Below are positions 16,090-27,107 of a stretch of 64,000 bases of DNA, one piece after another. Every line of letters begins with the position of its first letter. Position 1 is the stretch's first letter. Source of the stretch: an uncultured Bacteroidota bacterium (GTDB lineage Bacteria > Bacteroidota > Ignavibacteria > UBA10030 > UBA6906); the NCBI GenBank assembly GCA_963700635.1, contig CAVOYH010000003.1, positions 992,001 through 1,056,000 on the forward strand. The letters run 5' to 3'. The notes under the pieces are model-generated. The model had not been told where the DNA came from and ran no database searches. It saw only the letters and a list, made by a program, of their open reading frames with translations. A program made the position numbers and the translations under genes.

Positions 16090-17130
16090 CTATTCCTCGT
16101 CAATGACCCATGTATCAAGGAGGTTCTCCGGTATTCCGGAAATAAATCTCGACGGTTTGGAGAGAATCAGACCTGAGTCCCGGTCGTAGATATTGATCGG
16201 GTAGGTGATAAAAAGATTGTCCTTGGCGCGCGTACAGGCCACATACATCAGGCGTCGCTCTTCTTCCATTGTCTCTTCACTCATGGCAGCCCGCGTGCTG
16301 GGGAACCGGCCGTCAAGGGCATAGATCACAAACACCGAGTTCCACTCAAGTCCCTTGGCGCTGTGGATTGTGGAGAGAATCAGTCTTTCGTCTTCTGCGC
16401 TTGCCGGCGTCAGGTCCGCAACACTTTCGTTCGCCGGTTCGAGACTCAGATCGGTGAGGAACGATCCCAGAGCGCGGTACCGTTCGGCGATCTGCTGGAA
16501 CATTTCCAGATCTTTTTTCCGTTTGTTGAAGTCATCGTATCGCCTGGTGAAAATCGGCTCGTAGTATCCGAGAAGCTGCTGAATCTTGTCGGCGGGTGAA
16601 AGGTGAGCCGGGGCGACTTCCGTGAGCACGGTAAACAGTTCGCGCACTTTCTCAGGATAGCTGTTAAACTGCGACCAGAATGCCGGTAGCGTCGTGTCCG
16701 TTGCGTCACGTTCTGCGGAGACCCGACGCGCCACAATGTCCTCGATAACTTTTTCTGCCGTTCGCGGACCCACCCCATCCACGAGCAACAGGATCCGGTT
16801 CCATGCCACCGCATCACGGGGGTTCTCCAGGACGCGGAGGTAGGCGACAAGATCTTTGATATGCGCAGTCTCGATGAACTTGAATCCCCCGAATTTTACA
16901 AAAGGAATATTGGCCTTGTTGAGTTCGATCTCCAGATCAAAGGAAAGATAACTTGACCGGAACAGGACAGCCATGTCCTGGAGGGCGATACCCTGTTCGC
17001 GGAGTTCAAGGATCTTCTGGATGACGAAACGGGACTGGAGGTTTTCCGTTTGCGCCACAACGATGTTCGGCAGGTCGCCACCCGGACGTTGCGTGAAGAG
17101 CTCTTTGCTGTATTTGTGGCGTGTTGTCAT
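16090..17130 (-). CDS. UvrD/PcrA-family helicase, C-terminal half
   Basis: MAVLFRS, LSTIHSAKGLEW (motif V), EEERRLMYVACTRAK (motif VI), PSRFI. Confidence 0.88.
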   Translation of the reverse strand: MTTRHKYSKELFTQRPGGDLPNIVVAQTENLQSRFVIQKILELREQGIALQDMAVLFRSSYLSFDLEIELNKANIPFVKFGGFKFIETAHIKDLVAYLRVLENPRDAVAWNRILLLVDGVGPRTAEKVIEDIVARRVSAERDATDTTLPAFWSQFNSYPEKVRELFTVLTEVAPAHLSPADKIQQLLGYYEPIFTRRYDDFNKRKKDLEMFQQIAERYRALGSFLTDLSLEPANESVADLTPASAEDERLILSTIHSAKGLEWNSVFVIYALDGRFPSTRAAMSEETMEEERRLMYVACTRAKDNLFITYPINIYDRDSGLILSKPSRFISGIPENLLDTWVIDEE

Positions 17131-17249: not shown

Positions 17250-18206
17250 CTAGTTCAAACTCCGACCGATTGACGCGATGTGTTCCGGAGTGGTGCCGCA
17301 GCATCCTCCTACGATGGAAGCCCCCTGTGTGATCCACTCCGCTGCCAGGCGGCCGTACTCTCCGGCATCAACGTCCTCGATCAGCTCTTCCTTACGTTCA
17401 TCTCCGGGCCGGCCGGCGTTCCCGTAGGCGGCGATGAAAGGGCGATAGTCCGGCGCTACCATGCCGGGTATGCCCGCTCCCACCGCTACTTCTGGTATCA
17501 TCCTGTGTTTCTGCAGGATCCGCTGCAATTCCGCAAGCGGTTTTGTTATCGAACGTGCGGCAACACAGTTGACGCTGTAGCCCGCCGGTTTACACGGGAA
17601 GGTTGCAGTAACAGCCGCTTCCAGGCTCTCGCCGCCATACAGCATGCCGTCCGGTGTACAGAGGAAACTCAGCACCACTTCCTTCCCGGTTGCAGCAGCG
17701 GCTTCACATACATGCAGGGCTTCCCGGACCGTGCCGAATGTTTCAAGGAGCAGAAAATCCGCACCGGCATCGGCAAGCCGGCGGGCCTGCAGGGCATGTT
17801 CTTCCGCGAGTTCGGAGTCTGCGGGAACCAGGTCGGGCCTGTAACAATCCTCCAGAGGCGCAAGAGAGCCGGCAACAAGAATATCCCGTCCGGGAAACCG
17901 ATACCGCGCGGCAAGGGCCAGATCCACCGCGCGGCGGGTAAGTTCTTCCGACCGGTCGATGATGCCCGCACGACGGAATGTCCGCGGCGTTGTCCGGAAC
18001 GTATTGGAGGTAAGAATGTGCGCACCGGCGGAGATGTAGTCGATATGAATCTGCGACACCAGATCGGCCGCATCCAGGAGTGCGCGGGCTGACCAGAGAG
18101 GGAGTATGGTATTCGCTCCACGCTTCTGGAGTTCCGTGCCCATGGCGCCGTCCAGAAGCAACACCGTGTGTTTGGCCAGCAGAGCCGACAACGGACCGGG
18201 CATCAT
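17250..18206 (-). CDS. Homocysteine S-methyltransferase family protein
   Basis: LLDGAMGTEL, HIDYISAGA, ETF, VNC and IVGGCCGTTPEHI zinc-ligand motifs. Confidence 0.92.
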   Translation of the reverse strand: MMPGPLSALLAKHTVLLLDGAMGTELQKRGANTILPLWSARALLDAADLVSQIHIDYISAGAHILTSNTFRTTPRTFRRAGIIDRSEELTRRAVDLALAARYRFPGRDILVAGSLAPLEDCYRPDLVPADSELAEEHALQARRLADAGADFLLLETFGTVREALHVCEAAAATGKEVVLSFLCTPDGMLYGGESLEAAVTATFPCKPAGYSVNCVAARSITKPLAELQRILQKHRMIPEVAVGAGIPGMVAPDYRPFIAAYGNAGRPGDERKEELIEDVDAGEYGRLAAEWITQGASIVGGCCGTTPEHIASIGRSLN

Positions 18207-19189
18207 GCCCGCGCTCTCCGCAGGATTTCATTCGTGAGATTCAGGATCGGCTGTGTGCTCCGGTAGTTTTCTTCCAGTTTGATGATGGTGCAGCCGGGGT
18301 ATTGTTCGGGGTACTCCAGGATGTTCTGCACGGTAGCGCCGCGGAAGGCATAGATCGCCTGCGCGTCATCTCCCACCACCATCACATTGCCGTTCTTCCG
18401 GGCCAGGAGCCAGACAATTTCAGCCTGCACGCGGTTTGTATCCTGGTATTCATCCACCATGATGTACTTGTACCGGTCGGCAAGCGTGAGCCGCACACGT
18501 TCATGGTCGCGCAGGAGTGTCCGCAGGTGGACAAGCAGATCATCATAGTCCATCAGGTTGTGGGCGGCCTTGTATGCATCGTAGGCTTTGTGGAGGGCCG
18601 TGATCTCCGGCAGCAATTCCTCGAAATGCGGGTAGTCCTCTTTGAGCACATCATGCAGCGGCGTAGAAGTATTGACCGTGCGCGAGAAAATGTCGAAGAG
18701 AGTCTTCTTGCGCGGAAACCGCCGTTCGCGTGTGTCCAGCTTCAGGCGGGTGCGGAGGAGGTTCACCACGTCTTCGGCATCGGACTGATCCAGTATGGTA
18801 AACGACGACTGGTAGCCCAGCAGCGGTGCGTACTGACGGAGAATCAGATTGGCGAACGAATGGAACGTCCCGCCTGCCACACGCTCACATCGTGCATCCA
18901 GGAGCATGCTTGCTCGACGGAGCATCTCCTGTGCGGCGCGGCGTGTGAATGTGAGGAGCAGAATCGATTCCGGTTTTACGCCCAGCTCCACGAGGTACGC
19001 CACGCGGTAGGTAATCGCACGGGTTTTCCCCGTGCCTGCACCCGCGACGATAAGGTGGGGGCCGTTCACAGAACTGACCGCGGCGTACTGTGCCGGATTC
19101 AGCGCATTCCGATAGTCGATCTGAAACTGGCGGCCGGGTTCTGGTCCGACAACCTCCGCGGGTGTTTTCTTAATGACGTACTTTTTCAC
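18203..19189 (-). CDS. UvrD/PcrA-family helicase, N-terminal half
   Basis: LNPAQ Q-motif, AGAGTGKT Walker A, LTFT, TFHS, VDEYQD Walker B, VGDDAQAIY, LEENYRS; stops about 17 codons after NYRS. Confidence 0.9.
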   Translation of the reverse strand: MKKYVIKKTPAEVVGPEPGRQFQIDYRNALNPAQYAAVSSVNGPHLIVAGAGTGKTRAITYRVAYLVELGVKPESILLLTFTRRAAQEMLRRASMLLDARCERVAGGTFHSFANLILRQYAPLLGYQSSFTILDQSDAEDVVNLLRTRLKLDTRERRFPRKKTLFDIFSRTVNTSTPLHDVLKEDYPHFEELLPEITALHKAYDAYKAAHNLMDYDDLLVHLRTLLRDHERVRLTLADRYKYIMVDEYQDTNRVQAEIVWLLARKNGNVMVVGDDAQAIYAFRGATVQNILEYPEQYPGCTIIKLEENYRSTQPILNLTNEILRRARA

Positions 19190-19842: not shown

Positions 19843-20327
19843 CGTTTTCCCCCCAGCGAGCGGAGTCCGGAGAGGCCGAGTGCAATAGCGCCGACGGCGG
19901 TTCCCATGATCGGTGTTGGCACGGCGGCCAGCACGCCCAGTGCGGCAGCAACGCCGATGGCTTTGCCGGCTTTGTCTTTCTTCATGAACTTCTGTATGAA
20001 GAATGTGGGAAGAAATACGGCGAGGAAACATGCCGGGATCGTGACGATCCAGGCAAACGCAGCCATGTCGGGTAAGGTCCAGAGTGCATCGATGACAATA
20101 AGAAGGAGCGCAGAGAGAGGATGGATCAGGGGCTGATCGTTGGGTGCGCCGTGCTTCAGGTCTCCGGCCACCGGCCCTTCGGCCCCTGGCCGTCCGTCGA
20201 CGGATTCTCCGGCGACGGATCTATCGGCCTCCGGCCGTTCGGCCTCTGGCCGTTCGGCCTCTGGCCGTCCGGCTACCGGATGTTCCTGCTCAGAGCTTTT
20301 CGACGGGGTAGTCGGCGAGGATGTCAA
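19839..20327 (-). CDS. Hypothetical membrane protein with N-terminal pentapeptide repeats
   Basis: 3-4 hydrophobic segments, VPTPI motif; start uncertain. Confidence 0.7.
   Translation of the reverse strand: MTSSPTTPSKSSEQEHPVAGRPEAERPEAERPEADRSVAGESVDGRPGAEGPVAGDLKHGAPNDQPLIHPLSALLLIVIDALWTLPDMAAFAWIVTIPACFLAVFLPTFFIQKFMKKDKAGKAIGVAAALGVLAAVPTPIMGTAVGAIALGLSGLRSLGGKR
20163..20282 (-). repeat. Eight degenerate 15-bp tandem repeats (RPEAE-like)
   Basis: CGGCCAGAGGCCGAA twice exact plus six variants. Confidence 0.75.
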
Positions 20328-21297
20328 GAATCGCCTCGATGGTTTTGGGTGAATTTCCTTCCGCCCTGTTGTTCACATAGGCGTACAGTTTCTTGTCTTC
20401 CTTCACACAGCGTAAGACCGTCTCTGCAAGCGCGCGTCTGAGTTCGGGGAGCTGTTCCTGAATCCGGTCGTAGGGCTGAAACCGGTCCACGGCATCCTGA
20501 TACTTCCGGCCCGGTTTGAGAAGAGCCCGGACTGCTGTAAACGGAGCAGGAAGAACCCCCGGCACTTCAAGTTGTTCGGAGAGCTCAGGCATACGCGTCC
20601 AGCTGTTGAGCACGTGTGCAACACCATGCGTGTGCAGCATTGCCAGGTATTCCGCCGTCAGGAACTCGGCATTCCGTATCTCCACCGCATAGAGGCGCTG
20701 TTTCGGGAGTTTCGCCAGAAACGTGTCAAGTAATGATACAAAATCGGGAAACGTAATGCCCGACGATGGATAGAACGTCGAGAATTCGAAGATGATCACG
20801 CCGCATTTCTTGTGTAGTTCTTCAAGCGGACGGAGAAACGCATCTTCAAAAAGTGAGGGGTTCAGGAAATCCGGATTTTCCTGGCCCGCATTGGCGCCGT
20901 GCCGGGGGAGGTTGGGATACCGTTTTATGGTGATCCGGTCCGTGACTTTAAACGAAACGGAGAAGTGATCGGGCGTCTGATCAAAGATCGCCTTCATCCG
21001 GAGGGGTTGAGGGAAATCGTAGAGGGCGAAGTCGGCGCAGACCGTCGGGAAGACCGTTGCATACTCCGCAAGGCACTCCTGTTCGAAGTCACGTTTGGAG
21101 GAATACGGTCGTGTATAGACCATCCCTTTCCAACCGGGGTATTTCCAGGACGACGTGCCGAAGAAGATCCCGCGCGCGGCCCATTGCCGGAGTCTCTGCG
21201 CATTCACTGCGACATACGAGTCGGCGGCGGGGATCGGTTTCTCCTCCGCAAAAAGGGGCAACGTGGTGCCCGAAGCTTTTTTCCGTGCCTTCGCCAC
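20290..21297 (-). CDS. DUF72 (UPF0759) domain protein
   Basis: GTSSWKYPGW, YAVEIRN, YAYVNNRAEG. Confidence 0.88.
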   Translation of the reverse strand: MAKARKKASGTTLPLFAEEKPIPAADSYVAVNAQRLRQWAARGIFFGTSSWKYPGWKGMVYTRPYSSKRDFEQECLAEYATVFPTVCADFALYDFPQPLRMKAIFDQTPDHFSVSFKVTDRITIKRYPNLPRHGANAGQENPDFLNPSLFEDAFLRPLEELHKKCGVIIFEFSTFYPSSGITFPDFVSLLDTFLAKLPKQRLYAVEIRNAEFLTAEYLAMLHTHGVAHVLNSWTRMPELSEQLEVPGVLPAPFTAVRALLKPGRKYQDAVDRFQPYDRIQEQLPELRRALAETVLRCVKEDKKLYAYVNNRAEGNSPKTIEAILDILADYPVEKL

Positions 21298-21314: not shown

Positions 21315-22073
21315 TTATCCTGTCCGGATGCCGGCCAGAACCGCGACCACGGTCCAGACGACCCAGAGCGCAAATACAATCACCAGTACTTTGGGGAGAT
21401 CCCGCTGAAAGATGCGGGAAAGGCCGATGCTGACCACGGACAGATCCCAGAAGGTGAAGATGTTCACCTTTGCAAGGGCCATGTGCACTTTATTCTGAAA
21501 ATCAAAATTGGAAACAAACGCACCGAGACTTGGCGTTGCGGTGATCGAATCCATCATATACATCAGCAGCGTGGTGACGATACTTTCCGCGATGCTTATG
21601 AAGAACGTCAACCCGAGCACCTCGACCACCTTGATGTACGGTGCGGTGCCTTTCATCCCCCATTTCCCCAGGAGCCAGTAGATCAACGAAAGGACGAAGA
21701 GCACGATGGGGGTCAGAATAACAATACCCAGGACCTGCTGGATCATAAACATGCTTGATCCCGGTTTGGAAAAACTTGCAGCCTGGTCGGCCTGTTCCGG
21801 CGTGAGTTTTCCCTCTGCGACCATCTCATCAATTCCGGCGCGCATCATGTCGCTCATCTGGCCCAGGAGGGAAGGATTCATGAACATCACCTGACCCATC
21901 AGGAAGGCGACGACCATAAACAGCAGCATGGGAATCACCCAGTTGCTGGCCGTTGGCGGTGTGACACGCACGTCTTCAAAAAGCTCGCCCGGGGAGGCGA
22001 AGATATTGATCATTTTGTCGGTGAACGACATCGGGCTTTCCGGCTCCGTGGTGACGGGGGTTTGCTCGTCCAT
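21315..22073 (-). CDS. Yip1-family membrane protein
   Basis: IFASPGELF start, five hydrophobic helices, NIFTFW. Confidence 0.8.
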   Translation of the reverse strand: MDEQTPVTTEPESPMSFTDKMINIFASPGELFEDVRVTPPTASNWVIPMLLFMVVAFLMGQVMFMNPSLLGQMSDMMRAGIDEMVAEGKLTPEQADQAASFSKPGSSMFMIQQVLGIVILTPIVLFVLSLIYWLLGKWGMKGTAPYIKVVEVLGLTFFISIAESIVTTLLMYMMDSITATPSLGAFVSNFDFQNKVHMALAKVNIFTFWDLSVVSIGLSRIFQRDLPKVLVIVFALWVVWTVVAVLAGIRTG

Positions 22074-22148
22074 GGGAGATCCTTTTGCGAATGGTGGGGG
22101 AATCCACGGGAAAGATAGGGAATGGAAAGACGAGAAGCAACGGGCGAC

Positions 22149-22200
22149 ACGACATTTTTGTTACTTGTGTATTGACAAGACGACATAAATGTCGTATCCT
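22149..22200 (+). promoter_or_regulatory. sigma70 promoter of the PolB2 cassette with palindromic operator(s)
   Basis: TTGACA (22172-77)-N17-TATCCT (22195-200); ACGACAT-AA-ATGTCGT at 22180-22195; degenerate copy ACGACAT-TT-TTGTTAC at 22149-22164. Confidence 0.8.
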
Positions 22201-22226
22201 GGAGTGAACAGAATCCGGACGCCATT

Positions 22227-22838
22227 ATGGTATCGACAGGTCTTATTGAACAGTTCCGTGCCGCGCCACCCGGGAAATTGTACGGAGTGCACGGCGACAG
22301 CAGTGTCTTCCGGCTTTCCCTTGTGGCTGCCGGACACGCCCTGGTGCAGGGTGTACCGGTGACGCTGGTGGACGGGAGTAACCGGTTTGATCTGTACGGT
22401 CTGGCGGAGTTTGCCCGCCGGACTGCAGGCGGACGGTGTACGCCGGAGGAGCTTCTGCGGAACATCTTTGTCTCCCGCGCATTCACCTGTTACCAGATGG
22501 AAGCCGTCATCACCGACCGCCTGCCGGCATTTGTCCGGGCCAAACAATCGCCGGTGGTGTTGATCTTCGGATTATTGGATACGTTTTATGACGAACAGGC
22601 CTCGTTGTGGGATGTGCAGTCGGGCGTGCAACGTATGACGCAGGCGTTACAGTGTCTGAAGGAGGAAGGGGTATCGATACTGGTGGCCTCCATGGATGTT
22701 GGACCGGTACCGCCGGCGCGGCGGAATTTGTTGCCCGCGGTGATGAAGGGGATGGACAGGGTGTTTTCGCCCGGTGAACAGCATGCGGCGGCGGGGAAGC
22801 AGCGGGCGGTCGGCAGAAGATCTCCACGCCGGCGGTAG
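22227..22838 (+). CDS. Inactivated RadA/RecA-like protein (iRadA, PolB2-associated)
   Basis: LVDGSNRFDLY and LLRNIFVSRAFTCYQ RadA-like motifs; Walker A degenerate (HGDSSVFRLS). Confidence 0.8.
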   Translation: MVSTGLIEQFRAAPPGKLYGVHGDSSVFRLSLVAAGHALVQGVPVTLVDGSNRFDLYGLAEFARRTAGGRCTPEELLRNIFVSRAFTCYQMEAVITDRLPAFVRAKQSPVVLIFGLLDTFYDEQASLWDVQSGVQRMTQALQCLKEEGVSILVASMDVGPVPPARRNLLPAVMKGMDRVFSPGEQHAAAGKQRAVGRRSPRRR

Positions 22839-22878
22839 CGGAGAAATACTGTGTGTCGTAATCAGATGAGGGAAACCC

Positions 22879-23172
22879 ATGGGACGTACGGTGCCGACAT
22901 TTACCATGGTTCTGCAGCAGGAAATGGTCAGCTGGTCCAAATTCCGCCGCGGACTGCGTAAAGAAGATCAGGACGCGCTGGACGAGCTGTTCCGTGCCGC
23001 GCGGCTGCAGCTGGCCGGCAGCGCGTATGCCGCCCGGCCGATTCCGTTTGAAAGTATCGTCATGGCCATGCTTGTAGCCCAACAGCGGCGGATAACTGTC
23101 CTCGAAGGGATTGTGCACAAACCGGCCGACGTGAATAATTCCCATGCCCCTGCCATCCGGAGTACGCCGTAA
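22879..23172 (+). CDS. arCOG07300-like small helical protein associated with PolB2
   Basis: MGRTVPTF...WSKFRRGLRKEDQDALDELF...RPIPFESIVMAML; SD GAGG. Confidence 0.85.
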   Translation: MGRTVPTFTMVLQQEMVSWSKFRRGLRKEDQDALDELFRAARLQLAGSAYAARPIPFESIVMAMLVAQQRRITVLEGIVHKPADVNNSHAPAIRSTP

Positions 23173-23189
23173 GGCGTTACGAGGAAATC

Positions 23190-25559
23190 GTGCTGACCGC
23201 CTGGCTCTTTGACCTGTATCCTTCCCCCGAGGGGATCACGCTCTGGTTTATTGATGAAGAAGGGCGGAAACACCGGGCATTCGACCGGTTTGTGCCGTCA
23301 TTGTACCTGCATCTCAACGAACGGGACATTGATCGTGTTGCCGCACTGTTGCGGGCCTTCCCGTTCCCCATCACACTCCGCCGTGACACGCGGCGGGAAC
23401 TCTACAGCAACACCGACTGGAACGTGTTGCAGGTCTCCGTCGGCAGCACGCTCTATTTTAAGAGTGTTGTGCATCGCCTGGAGCGTCACCTCCCCCACTT
23501 TGCCTTCTTTAACTCGGACATACCGGTGCAGCAGCTGTATCTGTATGAAACCGGACTCTTCCCGCTGGCCTTCGGCGAGTACACGTTCGATGAGGAAAAT
23601 CGTTTACGCGGCTGGACACTTCTTGACACATCCGACGCGATCGAGTACACGCTCCCTCCGCTGGTGATGCTCACGCTAAAAAACCGCCCGGATGTTGTCT
23701 CTCCGAAGTTCCGGAAAACTCTTCAGCTCGAAGTGAGTTATGAAGGAACGACCTATGCCCTGGAGGGGAGTGATCCGGCGGACGTCTTACAATCGCTGGA
23801 CCGGCACATACAACGCTGTGATCCGGATGTCATCCTCACCGAATACGGCGACGCCGTTCTGTTGCCCATGCTCACGAAGTTAGCCGGCGAACACCAGGTG
23901 CCGTTATCGCTTAACCGCGACACCACGAGCGGATACATCACAACCCGTGCGACAAGCTATTTTGCATACGGGAAGATCGTTCACAAAGACGGAGCGTTTG
24001 AGCTGGCCGGGCGCTGGCATCTGGACACCGAGAATTCATTTATGATGGGGGAAGCGAGTCTGGATGGGGTGGCGGAGATCGCGCGGCTCACGCAGTTGCC
24101 CGTGCAGCATCAATCGCGGGCCACCATCGGCACCGCGTTGTCCAGCATGCAGCTCTCGTGGGCGCACCGTCACGGGTATCTGATACCGGCGCATAAACGT
24201 GAGCCGGAGGATTTTAAGTCGGCGGAAATACTGTTACTGGCCGACCGCGGCGGATTGATATTCCAGCCGGAGCTGGGGTATCACGAACAGGTCGCCGAAC
24301 TGGATTTTGTTTCCATGTATCCCACCATCATGGTCACGCACAACGTCTCTCCGGAAACGGTGAACTGCCGCTGCTGCAGGAACGAAGCTGTGCCGGAGCT
24401 GGGGTACACCATCTGTGAAAAGCGGGAGGGGATTGTGGCGGCCACATTACGGACGGTCGTGCACAAGCGGGGTATGTACAAGAAAGAGAAAAAGCGGTTA
24501 AAAGTGTTGAAGGATGAAGGGTGGAAGTTGTATGACCGGCGTCAAAACGCGCTCAAATGGATGCTGGTTACCTGCTTCGGATATCTCGGGTACAAGAATG
24601 CCCGGTTCGGGCGGATCGAAGCGCACGAGTCGGTGAACGCCTTTTCGCGTGACGCCATTCTGCGCGCCAAGGAGATTGCCGAAGGGCACGGGTTTCATTT
24701 TATCCACGCCATTGTGGATTGTATGTGGCTTAAACGTCCGGGAGCGACCGAAGCCGACTACGAAGCTCTTGCGCGGGAGGTGAGTGAAAGTGTAGGGATA
24801 GACATTTCGCTTGAAGGGATATACAACTGGGTCCTGTATCCGCCGTCCAAGATGGACCCGCGTTTACCCACGGCGAACCGGTATGTAGGGTGGTACACCA
24901 ACAACGAAATCAAGATCCGGGGGATAGAGATACGGCGGCGGGATACGCCGGTCTTTATCAAACGGCTGCAGGGGGAGATGTTGAAAATCCTGGGCGAAGG
25001 GAAAACGGTGGAAGAGTTGCGGGCGTTGTTGCCGGCGGTGTTGTTGAAGGCAAGGGAGGGGATCGACCTGTTACGCTCCGGCAAAGCCGATCCGCTGGAG
25101 CTGGTTGTGCGGCGGCATCTCTCGAAGGAGGCGGACGAGTACACGAACCGGAGTGCCAACGCAATCGTGGCGCAGGCGCTGGAGGAAGCCGGTGTACATC
25201 TGGCTCCCGGGGAGACGGTGGAGTACATCATCATCGATGCCACCGGCAAGCGGAATCCGGAGAAAGCCAAGGCCGTGGCATTGTATTCGCTTGACGACGG
25301 GTATGACATCGGAAAGTACACCGAGATGGCGTTAAAGGCGGTTGAAACGTTATTGTTTCCGTTCGGGTACGATGTGGAGCGGTTAACGGAGATGTGGTGC
25401 CCGGTGGTGAAAAAGGGGAAAAAAGAAGCCGTTGCGCGTGTAGCGGAGCAGGGGGAGTTGTTTGTTGCGGGAACTGTCGTTCACAATCATACGTTCTCCC
25501 CTGTATGTTCATCCGCGGGGGAGATTAATCATCAACCAAAGAGGAGAGAATCAGCATGA
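23190..25559 (+). CDS. polB2: Family B DNA polymerase, PolB2 group
   Basis: Motif A DFVSMYP; motif B KWMLVTCFGYLG; motif C HAIVDC instead of YGDTDS; RYVG and KIRGIE; degenerate exonuclease domain. Confidence 0.88.
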   Translation: MLTAWLFDLYPSPEGITLWFIDEEGRKHRAFDRFVPSLYLHLNERDIDRVAALLRAFPFPITLRRDTRRELYSNTDWNVLQVSVGSTLYFKSVVHRLERHLPHFAFFNSDIPVQQLYLYETGLFPLAFGEYTFDEENRLRGWTLLDTSDAIEYTLPPLVMLTLKNRPDVVSPKFRKTLQLEVSYEGTTYALEGSDPADVLQSLDRHIQRCDPDVILTEYGDAVLLPMLTKLAGEHQVPLSLNRDTTSGYITTRATSYFAYGKIVHKDGAFELAGRWHLDTENSFMMGEASLDGVAEIARLTQLPVQHQSRATIGTALSSMQLSWAHRHGYLIPAHKREPEDFKSAEILLLADRGGLIFQPELGYHEQVAELDFVSMYPTIMVTHNVSPETVNCRCCRNEAVPELGYTICEKREGIVAATLRTVVHKRGMYKKEKKRLKVLKDEGWKLYDRRQNALKWMLVTCFGYLGYKNARFGRIEAHESVNAFSRDAILRAKEIAEGHGFHFIHAIVDCMWLKRPGATEADYEALAREVSESVGIDISLEGIYNWVLYPPSKMDPRLPTANRYVGWYTNNEIKIRGIEIRRRDTPVFIKRLQGEMLKILGEGKTVEELRALLPAVLLKAREGIDLLRSGKADPLELVVRRHLSKEADEYTNRSANAIVAQALEEAGVHLAPGETVEYIIIDATGKRNPEKAKAVALYSLDDGYDIGKYTEMALKAVETLLFPFGYDVERLTEMWCPVVKKGKKEAVARVAEQGELFVAGTVVHNHTFSPVCSSAGEINHQPKRRESA

Positions 25560-26182
25560 AACAGCGATTTGCGGTGAGTATCGTTTTTGCAGCGGTGGTA
25601 ATGCTTGCGGGGAGCCCATTGGTTGCCCAGGAAAAGGCGGCAGATCATCACCCCCCGACTCAGGCGCAGATGGATGAAATGACGAAAAAGTGGCAGGAGG
25701 CAATGACGCCCGGGGCGCCTCACAAGCTGCTTGAAAGTATGGCGGGTGACTGGGCCAGCGAAACGAAGGTCTGGATGGAAGGTCCGGATGCGCCCCCCAT
25801 GGTCACGAAAGGGAGCTCCACCATGAAAATGGTGCTGGGGGGAAGATTCCTGCTGCAGGACATGGACGGGGAGATGATGGGGATGCCCATGAAGGGGATA
25901 GGATACACCGGTTACGACAACTTCAAGAAGAAATTTGTCGGTTTCTGGATTGACGATGCCGGGACTGGGATGTACACGATGGAGGGGGTTGCGAACGGCG
26001 ACAACACGGTGTTAACGTTTATGGGCACGATGGACGACGTGATGACCGGTGAGAAGAACAAGCCGGTCAAATACGTCACCCGGATCCTCGGCAAAGACAA
26101 ACACATCTTCGAGATCCACGACATGACGAAAAAAGGGAAGGACACGAAGGTGATGGAAGCAGTATATGAGAGGAAGAAGTGA
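25556..26182 (+). CDS. DUF1579 family exported protein
   Basis: Signal peptide; MTPGAPHKLL..MAGDW, LGGRFL, GYDNFKKKFVGFWID. Confidence 0.85.
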   Translation: MKQRFAVSIVFAAVVMLAGSPLVAQEKAADHHPPTQAQMDEMTKKWQEAMTPGAPHKLLESMAGDWASETKVWMEGPDAPPMVTKGSSTMKMVLGGRFLLQDMDGEMMGMPMKGIGYTGYDNFKKKFVGFWIDDAGTGMYTMEGVANGDNTVLTFMGTMDDVMTGEKNKPVKYVTRILGKDKHIFEIHDMTKKGKDTKVMEAVYERKK

Positions 26183-26234: not shown

Positions 26235-26270
26235 ACGTGCGGCGCCCGATAGGGCGCCGCGTGTGTTTTT
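26235..26270 (+). terminator. Intrinsic terminator
   Basis: GCGGCGCCC-GATA-GGGCGCCGC stem followed by GTGTGTTTTT. Confidence 0.8.
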
Positions 26271-26328
26271 GCTGGAAAAAAACGTTAACAGTACATCTCA
26301 CAGAATACCACAGACACTCTTCACTCTG

Positions 26329-26465: not shown

Positions 26466-27107
26466 ATGACCCCAAAGTCAAGCACACGTACCACACGCAA
26501 ACGAGTTGTCGCCTATATCGACGGCTTTAATCTCTATTTCGGCCTGAAATCCGCCGGATGGAGGAGGTTCTACTGGCTGAATGTCCAGCTTCTGGCCCGA
26601 CACCTTGTCAAAGCCGGCCAGGATCTGGTCTTTACCAAGTATTTTACAAGCCGTGTGCCTTTCCCCGCCGACAAAGAGCGGAGACAATCCACGTTCCTGG
26701 AGGCGCTGGAAACCCTGAGCGACCTTCGTATCTACTACGGACACTACCAGAATAACCTGCAGCGGTGCCACAAATGTGGCCACAAAGTTTGGATTCCCAA
26801 CGAAAAAATGACGGATGTGAATATTGCCGTGGAGATGATGTCAGACGCGTATCAGAACCGCTTTGACGTGGCACTCCTGATTTCCGCTGACAGCGATCTC
26901 TCCGCGCCCGTGCTGGCAATCAAGGATCTCTTTCCGGAAAAACGTGTCATTGTCGCATTTCCGCCCCAGCGCCACTCCGCCCAGCTCCAACGATTGGCGC
27001 ACGGCTATCTCCAGATCGGACGGGCAAGCATGGCCCAGAGCCTCTTCCCGGACAAGGTGCCCAAGCCCGATGGTTTCGTCCTGAAAAGACCAGCAGAATG
27101 GAGGTAG
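26466..27107 (+). CDS. NYN (LabA/DUF88, PIN-like) domain ribonuclease with CxxC insert
   Basis: YIDGFNLY, CHKC, EKMTDVNIA, LISADSDL. Confidence 0.9.
   Translation: MTPKSSTRTTRKRVVAYIDGFNLYFGLKSAGWRRFYWLNVQLLARHLVKAGQDLVFTKYFTSRVPFPADKERRQSTFLEALETLSDLRIYYGHYQNNLQRCHKCGHKVWIPNEKMTDVNIAVEMMSDAYQNRFDVALLISADSDLSAPVLAIKDLFPEKRVIVAFPPQRHSAQLQRLAHGYLQIGRASMAQSLFPDKVPKPDGFVLKRPAEWR

Follow-up and report, generated by a model that had tools for sequence, protein, structure and literature searches.

What is a B-family DNA polymerase with altered catalytic and proofreading motifs doing beside a RadA-like gene in a Bacteroidota bacterium, and what might switch it on? The question is raised by a 64,000-nucleotide stretch of contig CAVOYH010000003.1 (contig C3, positions 992001-1056000; hereafter, the window) from the genome of an uncultured bacterium of the class Ignavibacteria (4.2 Mb in 6 contigs, 97% complete), the proteins of which have their closest relatives in metagenome-assembled genomes (MAGs) labeled Ignavibacteriae/Ignavibacteriota or Bacteroidota. 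An earlier reading made from the letters alone (the sequence-only reading) had described a PolB2-type triad of three co-oriented genes at 22227-25559, coding for a RadA-like protein lacking a Walker A motif, a 97-amino-acid (aa) MGRTVP protein, and a PolB with motif C changed to HAIVDC and a decayed proofreading domain. Our analysis bears out this description in all of its parts: the open reading frames (ORFs) lie on the plus strand at these coordinates, and each testable defining feature of an iRadA-PPB2-PolB2 cassette was found. In our assessment, this is a real and intact cassette, probably that of a damage-inducible translesion polymerase; specifically, we consider it likely that an Ignavibacteria-type member of Bacteroidota here possesses an intact PolB2 "mutasome" operon with a translesion role, inducible by damage via a CI-like repressor. 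The three genes, which are separated by gaps of 40 bp (iRadA-PPB2) and 17 bp (PPB2-PolB2), are as follows (all from the ORF list):

22227..22838, plus strand: iRadA ORF, 203 aa
22879..23172, plus strand: PPB2 ORF, 97 aa, reading MGRTVPTFTMV...FRRGLRKED
23190..25559, plus strand: PolB2 ORF, 789 aa, with a GTG start

PF00136 (E = 5.5e-32) places the 789-aa protein among the family B polymerases. The NCBIfam models that match it best are NF004416 (405.8 bits) and NF004418 (395 bits), both named "type B DNA-directed DNA polymerase," with the best archaeal "DNA polymerase I" model (NF004417) reaching 167.5 bits and the best Pol II model (NF004421) reaching 56.7 bits. A protein from a Bathyarchaeia archaeon, 35% identical to it over the full length, ranks the NCBIfam models in the same order, and on account of this shared ranking we take NF004416 and NF004418 to be the models that presumably stand for PolB2. 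Of 10 representative clusters looked up, two carried an organism name, Anaerolineae and Bathyarchaeia. The sequence-only reading had named a grouping with Pol II or PolB3 as the finding that would speak against it; the profile scores group the polymerase neither with Pol II nor with PolB1/PolB3. The closest solved structures are PolB enzymes of Thermococcales (phmmer against the PDB; E of ~1e-48), which align only from residue ~272 onward.

As a standard of comparison, we used the other PolB of the same genome, a 784-aa protein encoded on contig C5 with canonical DIE, DTD, and KILINSFYGYLGY motifs. Motif A reads DFVSMYP (residue 372) in PolB2 versus DVESLYP in the C5 protein, motif B reads KWMLVTCFGYLGY (residue 456) versus KILINSFYGYLGY, and motif C reads HAIVDC (residues 506 to 511, with I508-V509-D510 at its center) versus EVDTDG. 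None of the exonuclease acidic residues of the C5 protein (DIE, FD, and YALDD) has an aligned counterpart in PolB2, and ~47 residues of the exonuclease region, complete in the former, are absent from the latter; by alignment, the proofreading domain of PolB2 is both dead and shrunken. Across 34 relatives, D372 of motif A, K456 of motif B, and D510, the second aspartate of motif C, are invariant, as are F342, K343, A345, D352, and R353. In a library of 1.84 billion proteins, we aligned 125 of the 150 nearest representatives (640 to 900 aa; the 25 shorter or longer ones were excluded), and the first aspartate of motif C is absent from all 125, its place being taken in the variants IVD (66), LTD (19), ITD (11), LVD (8), YVD (7), IID (5), and others (9). 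A D[KR] pair directly precedes a conserved GG in 119 of the 125, at a position where the C5 protein, with its DTD in motif C, has TT. A substituted first aspartate, a reduced exonuclease, and a D(K/R) after a beta-alpha motif are the traits by which PolB2 has been described (PMC11791011).

Two side observations concern these polymerases. Among the PolB2-like representatives P0365, P0394, P0399, P0411, P0413, P0418, P0431, and P0472, several are 1200 to 1300 aa long, and their match to the query splits in two near residue 463, just past motif B, a pattern that suggests inserted inteins. The C5 polymerase (locus L001, 1321-3675, minus strand) retains its exonuclease and polymerase motifs intact. 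The NCBIfam model that it matches best is Pol II, but the score of 116.7 bits lies far below the cutoff of 570; it is therefore no orthodox Pol II and is possibly a member of the uncharacterized bacterial group of Pol-epsilon-like polymerases to which PMC12926913 refers.

After a basic linker, the C-terminal tail of PolB2 carries QGELF (residues 754 to 758), and a Q..[LMIV]F pattern occurs within the last 75 residues in 26 of the 34 relatives; a clamp-like motif is found in 1 of 40 iRadA tails. QxxLF motifs bind the beta clamp (PMC11791011), and the frequency of the motif in PolB2 tails together with its rarity in those of iRadA is in line with the published rule that the motif resides in one of the two subunits. 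These features bear on whether the enzyme synthesizes DNA at all. With its motif C lacking the first aspartate and its exonuclease residues gone, the polymerase could be catalytically dead, the three proteins then forming a nonsynthesizing DNA-binding complex that acts at stalled forks or in the regulation of replication; indeed, PolB2 was first considered inactivated, with roles proposed at stalled forks or in origin regulation (PMC4104785). We regard this as improbable. The invariance of D372, K456, and D510 argues against it, the conserved clamp motif fits a working polymerase, and in Sulfolobus islandicus a polymerase with the same pattern (IID) is stated to be active and needed for mutagenesis (PMC11791011; PMC8764526).

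The 203-aa product of the first gene matches no Pfam family and retrieves the RadA model TIGR02236 only weakly (E = 0.066). In an alignment of 40 relatives, the strand-loop-helix element where a P-loop is expected reads LYGVHGDSSVFRLSL, and the GxxxxGK[ST] signature occurs nowhere. Its AlphaFold2 model (predicted local distance difference test [pLDDT] score, 83.5; predicted template modeling [pTM] score, 0.80) retrieves RAD51, DMC1, RadA, and RAD51 paralogues as the top Foldseek matches (E of 2.7e-8 to 2e-7; probability of 1.0), with query-normalized TM scores of 0.60 to 0.69 against RAD51/DMC1/RadA cores. The N-terminal helical DNA-binding and oligomerization domain is missing, the first strand beginning at residue 18 and the matches covering 167 to 206 columns of targets of ~300 aa. 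By sequence and predicted structure, the protein is an ATPase-dead Rad51/RadA core, i.e., iRadA.

PPB2 has a conserved N terminus. Among 38 sequences, M1, G2, R3, T4, and the whole of MGRTVPTFTMV are invariant, and the first 75 residues are nearly so. The AlphaFold2 monomer model predicts helices at residues 8 to 23, 28 to 46, and 57 to 80, a four-residue turn, and a free N-terminal arm. The protein and all 120 of its listed relatives bear the precomputed Pfam label PF26485, named DUF8156 in the protein atlas; its neighbors there are DUF8156 clusters (score of 0.94), one of them 71% archaeal (Methanobacteriota), and there are bacterial ones (Nitrospirota) too.

FxxA is the pattern through which Rad51 oligomerizes. 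PolB2 has F342-K-S-A345 followed by D352-R353, an arrangement that fits the published "beta-alpha motif before D(K/R)" (PMC11791011). A structure prediction of the complex, as the sequence-only reading had proposed, was carried out for the pair of full-length PolB2 and iRadA, using our own alignments, in three runs with three controls. The fold score was 0.85 in each of the three runs, against 0.00 for the best of the controls; among pairs of known status, the 0.85 mark is attained by 58 of the 80 solved complexes and by 2 of the 110 that were mismatched. The runs have at least 85% of contacts in common, with a partner pLDDT of at least 79. The confident interface joins PolB2 residues 98 to 104, 335 to 352, and 469 to 476 to iRadA residues 46 to 63, 74 to 102, and 124 to 132; its core lies between PolB2 335 to 352 and iRadA 77 to 94, and the expected error is lowest for PolB2 342 to 345 against iRadA 77 to 83, i.e., on the FKSA motif itself. 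The prediction thus supports binding of iRadA by PolB2 via this motif.

A scan of one genome per species recovered 33 related loci, all in MAGs labeled Ignavibacteriota or Bacteroidota, with polymerases 66 to 87% identical to that of the window. In 30 of the 32 loci with upstream DNA (the 33rd has none), iRadA and PPB2 immediately precede the polymerase gene, arranged as in the window; one of these 30 triads, at a contig end, was recognized solely by profile hidden Markov models (HMMs). This recurrence indicates that the triad is real rather than a chance arrangement. PPB2 was found in 36 of 40 relatives of the window genome. When 400 further genomes were sampled evenly across the phylum, 36 proved to have it (34 from the order of the window genome and 2 from one other family of the class), and it was not found in the remainder of those searched. 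According to PMC11791011, iRadA-PPB2-PolB2 is the only gene order reported for bacteria, which are said to have acquired PolB2 through horizontal transfer.

How the cassette might be controlled is suggested by the 153-bp region (22074-22226) between iRadA and a divergent gene coding for a Yip1-domain protein and by a genome-wide scan with a position weight matrix (PWM) built from 62 sites in relatives. The elements in question, together with a second locus of the same contig, are as follows:

22172..22200, plus strand: sigma-70-like promoter, TTGACA-17-TATCCT (consensus scan, 10/12 matches)
22180..22195, unstranded: candidate operator 1, the perfect palindrome ACGACATAAATGTCGT in the promoter spacer (PWM, 34.5 bits, the best in the genome)
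22149..22164, unstranded: candidate operator 2, ACGACATTTTTGTTAC, the weaker of the two, lying 31 bp upstream of the first (PWM, 15.1 bits, third in the genome)
C3:396874-398560, outside the window: S24 gene (216 aa) with a divergent second DUF72 gene (302 aa), a pair kept in most of 30 fetched loci of relatives

The 16-mer ACGACATAAATGTCGT has exactly two copies in the 4.2-Mb genome. The second, at C3:397566, lies in a promoter of like build (TTGACA, palindrome, TATCAT) between the divergent S24 and DUF72 genes, 617 kb from the cassette. The S24 gene is the only one in the genome with a PF00717 match (E = 5.5e-24); its product combines an HTH_3/HTH_31 helix-turn-helix domain with Peptidase_S24 and shows a weak match to Phage_CI_repr (E = 2e-5). 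Canonical LexA was rejected as the repressor: the LexA winged helix (PF01726) has no match in the 97% complete genome, in a search that was positive in 10 of 14 control genomes, and the repressor carries HTH_3/HTH_31 instead. The presumed cleavage-site glycine, the serine of G.SM, and one lysine are invariant in 29 S24 orthologues; from what is known of LexA, we take these to be the cleavage-site and catalytic residues. Under the PWM, the two copies score 34.5 and 32.5 bits and operator 2 scores 15.1 bits, these being the only three positions in the genome to reach 15 bits; everything else stays at or below 14.7. Other sites with at most one mismatch were considered as regulon members and rejected, since they fall within extended coding sequence (for example, a 700-aa ORF or a phosphoenolpyruvate carboxykinase-like ORF) and score at most 14.7 bits.

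The palindrome recurs at the same places in relatives. ACGACA-N4-TGTCGT with at most one mismatch occurs upstream of the iRadA operon in 27 of 29 loci with an iRadA match (23 exact), the two loci lacking it ending 1.2 to 1.4 kb upstream of iRadA; paired sites spaced 31 to 32 bp apart are seen in 10 related polymerase loci. At the S24 gene, the motif is found in all 30 fetched loci, without a mismatch in 23, with one in 3, and with two in 4. An S24 orthologue accompanies PPB2 in 32 of 40 relatives; PPB2 without S24 was seen in 4, a weak S24 match without PPB2 in 1, and neither was found in 3. The two genes are no more than ~4 kb apart in eight genomes. No match to the repressor or to the second DUF72 was obtained within the 33 polymerase loci (tblastn, E of 1e-3). 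As the relatives are not independent, these co-occurrence and conservation counts are descriptive. The palindrome and the CI-like HTH_3 plus S24 protein are, on this sequence evidence, a candidate operator-repressor pair.

The CI-like character of the regulator, with its weak Phage_CI_repr match, and the reported horizontal acquisition of PolB2 by bacteria (PMC11791011) might be taken to mean that the cassette is part of a mobile element or prophage, the S24 protein being a phage repressor and the shared palindrome an instance of prophage control. We consider this very improbable. The G+C content is even along the region (0.56 to 0.58), no integrase or phage genes are seen among the neighbors, and the repressor adjoins a DUF72 gene rather than phage genes; moreover, the cassette, the adjoining Yip1 and DUF72 genes, and the repressor have been kept in place across the order, with PPB2 in 36 of 40 relatives and an S24 match in 33 of 40.

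On the basis of these observations, a mechanism can be conceived for the translesion cassette. The proofreading-deficient PolB2 would, most likely, extend DNA across or past lesions and be error-prone, as in S. islandicus, while holding iRadA through its Rad51-style FxxA motif, F342-K-S-A345. Following published models, PPB2 would form a trimer with its MGRT arm inserted between PolB2 and iRadA, bridging them with DNA, and QGELF of the PolB2 tail would probably tether the complex to the beta sliding clamp. In the uninduced state, the CI-like S24 repressor would occupy ACGACA-N4-TGTCGT in the promoter spacer and keep the operon off; upon DNA damage, RecA-stimulated self-cleavage of the repressor would turn on the cassette along with the associated DUF72 genes. 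The genes, motifs, folds, synteny, and conserved palindromes are observed, and the PolB2-iRadA interface is predicted; that the polymerase is active, that the complex forms in the cell, that the repressor binds, and that damage induces the operon in the host organism are features that we infer.

Several observations weigh against this interpretation. The first catalytic aspartate of motif C is an isoleucine, and activity is argued by analogy with Sulfolobus Dpo2 (IID). The scores of NF004416 and NF004418 fall under both curated cutoffs (516 and 692 bits); among control genomes, NF004416 was matched in five and exceeded its cutoff in none. The PPB2 model is of moderate confidence (pLDDT of 70.4), and a fold search with it against 48,161 representative chains gave nothing clear, the top Z score being 5.7 and the matches generically helical; a chain related to extracytoplasmic function (ECF) sigma factors ranked 4th (Z of 5.3) and ECF sigma factor L ranked 36th (Z of 4.3), so that the search argues neither for nor against the published likeness to sigma factors. 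Since Rad51-FxxA interfaces have already been solved, the PolB2-iRadA score may in part reflect likeness or model memory. Two related loci, L041 and L043 (PolB2 67% identical), have no iRadA or PPB2 within 4 to 6 kb upstream, by profile HMMs as well; upstream of their PolB2 stand a response regulator and a sensor-kinase-like gene instead. Four of the 40 relatives have PPB2 with no S24 match. The best operator scores are -13.9 bits upstream of recA, which is present in the genome, -7.7 bits upstream of its single Y-family polymerase gene, and -14.5 bits upstream of the C5 polymerase; as these three lack an operator-like site, the regulon is not that of a canonical SOS response, and the repressor could respond to a signal other than DNA damage. 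Among the sequencing runs listed, no RNA run contains the stretch, small shares of which (0.05 to 0.09) are present in six DNA metagenome runs. Full-text literature searches found no bench work on bacterial PolB2, arCOG07300, iRadA, PPB2, or DUF8156, in line with the statement in the sequence-only reading that experimental characterization in bacteria was not known.

Much of this picture has precedents. Linkage of PolB2, arCOG07300, inactivated RadA, and lexA in bacteria was reported by Makarova et al. in 2014 (PMC4104785); the iRadA-PPB2-PolB2 complex was modeled, with bacteria covered, by Timinskas, Timinskas, and Venclovas in 2025 (PMC11791011); and archaeal Dpo2 is damage inducible and needed for targeted mutagenesis (PMC7390963, PMC8764526, and PMC11791011). 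The "mutasome-like" interpretation of the sequence-only reading is supported but not original, as it coincides with an in silico proposal already published (PMC4104785 and PMC11791011). The locus shares with the bacterial PolB2 group G2 operon of these sources the three families, the gene order, the MGRT arm, the D(K/R) motif, a Rad51-like motif predicted to bind iRadA, a clamp motif in one large subunit, a DUF72 neighbor, and a link to an S24 repressor. It differs in that the repressor is encoded 617 kb away rather than in the neighborhood and is a CI-like HTH_3 plus S24 protein with no LexA winged helix. The operator sequence and the two-promoter regulon do not appear in the available excerpts of PMC11791011 and PMC4104785.

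Comparable likenesses extend to better-studied systems. Dpo2 of S. islandicus shares the replacement of the first aspartate by isoleucine (IID there, IVD here), the absence of proofreading, the accompanying iRadA and arCOG07300 genes, and, from the literature, a role in the damage response; unlike the present system, which is known from sequence, it is archaeal, works with PCNA rather than the beta clamp and under archaeal regulators, and has been tested experimentally. ImuA-ImuB-DnaE2 is, as the present operon would be, damage regulated, with an error-prone polymerase, a RecA-like inactive ATPase, and an adaptor reaching the clamp, but no component is of the same subfamily (C-family and inactive Y-family polymerases there, a B-family polymerase here), making it an analogue only. 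Escherichia coli Pol V (UmuD'2C-RecA-ATP) is also a multisubunit translesion polymerase with a recombinase-family subunit and an S24-family repressor, but it is a Y-family enzyme with an active RecA and with UmuD as an S24 subunit; the host genome lacks UmuD, given that its single S24 gene carries a helix-turn-helix domain. The noncanonical LexA of Bacteroidetes (Sanchez-Osuna et al., 2021; PMC8565304) is similarly an S24 repressor encoded on the chromosome; its DNA-binding domain is not of the LexA type, and it regulates its own gene and governs translesion polymerases via a palindrome with a spacer between its dyad halves. The candidate system described here differs in its ACGACA-N4-TGTCGT motif and in the lack of a site at recA; the main text of PMC8565304 contains none of the terms Ignavibacteria, Chlorobi, polB, DUF72, and TGTCG. 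The proposed S24 control of PolB2 in this lineage parallels both the link of bacterial PolB2 to lexA (PMC4104785 and PMC11791011) and the noncanonical LexA (PMC8565304). For bacteria, the cassette and its reading as a mutasome are already in print; what is new here, besides the clamp-type motif of the PolB2 tail and the predicted contact with iRadA, is the candidate regulator-operator pair, the evidence for a dedicated regulon in place of a broad SOS response, and the leads on DUF72.

The genes around the cassette supply these leads, along with further details of the transcription unit:

21315..22073, minus strand: Yip1-domain membrane protein (PF04893; E = 5e-9), divergent from the operon and adjoining the cassette in 23 of 33 loci
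20290..21297, minus strand: DUF72 protein (PF01904; E = 1.8e-29, Pfam match), downstream of Yip1
25556..26182, plus strand: DUF1579 protein (PF07617; E = 4.8e-43), its start and the stop of PolB2 sharing 4 bp; seen downstream of the polymerase gene in 10 of 33 loci
26235..26274, plus strand: terminator-like hairpin with a 13-bp stem, 10 G-C pairs, and a T-rich tail, the only strong one

DUF72 is a TIM-barrel family that others have connected with UV-damage endonuclease. Of the 33 related loci, 26 have DUF72 next to the cassette, either as the divergent orthologue or as a distant paralogue directly upstream of iRadA, and enrichment of DUF72 near polB2 has been published (PMC11791011). The N-terminal extension of the window protein (near 21297, minus strand) has a basic patch followed by T-L-P-L-F; [LQPS]-[PS]-L-F stands at the same position in all 17 readable orthologue N termini and looks like a beta-clamp-binding motif. 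No leftward sigma-70-like promoter for Yip1-DUF72 was found in the shared control region, and for this reason co-regulation of these two genes is suggested by position alone. A literature search for DUF72 returned mostly unrelated DUF72x families.

In 10 related loci (L029, L032, L033, L034, L038, L039, L046, L047, L051, and L052), the operon behind the candidate operator is longer ahead of iRadA-PPB2-PolB2, adding in the same orientation a small Cys-rich ORF, a Y-family polymerase (IMS plus IMS_C, ~405 aa), and a diverged DUF72-like gene, the product of which ends in LSPIKRRAA and in L034 is fused to the Cys-rich part; the distance from operator to iRadA reaches 1.3 to 2.8 kb in several relatives. 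Farther along the minus strand of the window, a UvrD-like helicase is encoded in two halves, the N-terminal domains at 18203..19189 and UvrD_C at 16090..17130, the two being separated by a complete and equally oriented homocysteine S-methyltransferase gene (17250..18206) with a 4-bp start/stop overlap. The order of these three ORFs is the same in all 10 loci compared (the genome itself and nine relatives of the same family), at identities of 68 to 94% for the halves and 49 to 70% for the inserted gene, and at least five relatives have the cluster at a distance of 4 to 5 kb from their PolB2 cassette.

These neighbors raise the prospect that the polymerase serves recombination-dependent or gap-filling repair together with the nuclease-like DUF72 proteins and the split UvrD-like helicase, rather than primarily mutagenic bypass. 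The Rad51-like subunit, the linkage of DUF72 to the cassette in 26 of 33 loci, the DUF72 paralogue behind the same candidate operator, and the synteny of the split UvrD cluster in relatives of the same family all favor this, as does the presence in the operons of relatives of a true Y-family polymerase, which could perform the insertion step. We nevertheless think it unlikely: iRadA lacks the P-loop needed for strand exchange, and, according to PMC8764526, the homologue in archaea serves translesion synthesis by error-prone extension. Within the preferred interpretation, that of a damage-inducible translesion polymerase, the same genes lead us to propose, tentatively, a small damage regulon, independent of canonical LexA and with the PolB2 cassette at its core, in which the S24 repressor, through an operator not known to have been described before, would act on its own gene, on the mutasome operon, and on two DUF72 genes (as well as on the Y-family polymerase where relatives have it in the operon) but not on recA, with DUF72 as a clamp partner of the polymerase, for example, a nuclease acting at the lesion side.

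At the other end of the operon, the DUF1579 gene is probably cotranscribed with PolB2 and is possibly a passenger; with a signal-peptide-like N terminus, its product is an odd companion in a repair operon. The hairpin (26235-26264) is likely the end of the transcription unit. Past it on the plus strand, at 26466-27107, lies a gene for an NYN-domain protein (a predicted RNase) with no evident link to the cassette.

To our knowledge, PolB2 mutasomes are the only multisubunit translesion polymerases of family B. As both the cassette and its interpretation have been published, the picture of the family is unchanged; what this lineage offers is a complete and near-universal cassette with a concrete candidate circuit in which one repressor and one 16-bp operator would serve two promoters. 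With these in hand, a heterologous host would allow direct tests of whether damage induces the operon, whether the repressor binds, and what the FxxA contact does. The clamp-type motif and the linkage to the cassette give a lead on the role of DUF72, and if a regulon independent of canonical LexA and including DUF72 is borne out, it would provide the first functional context for a widespread family of unknown function.

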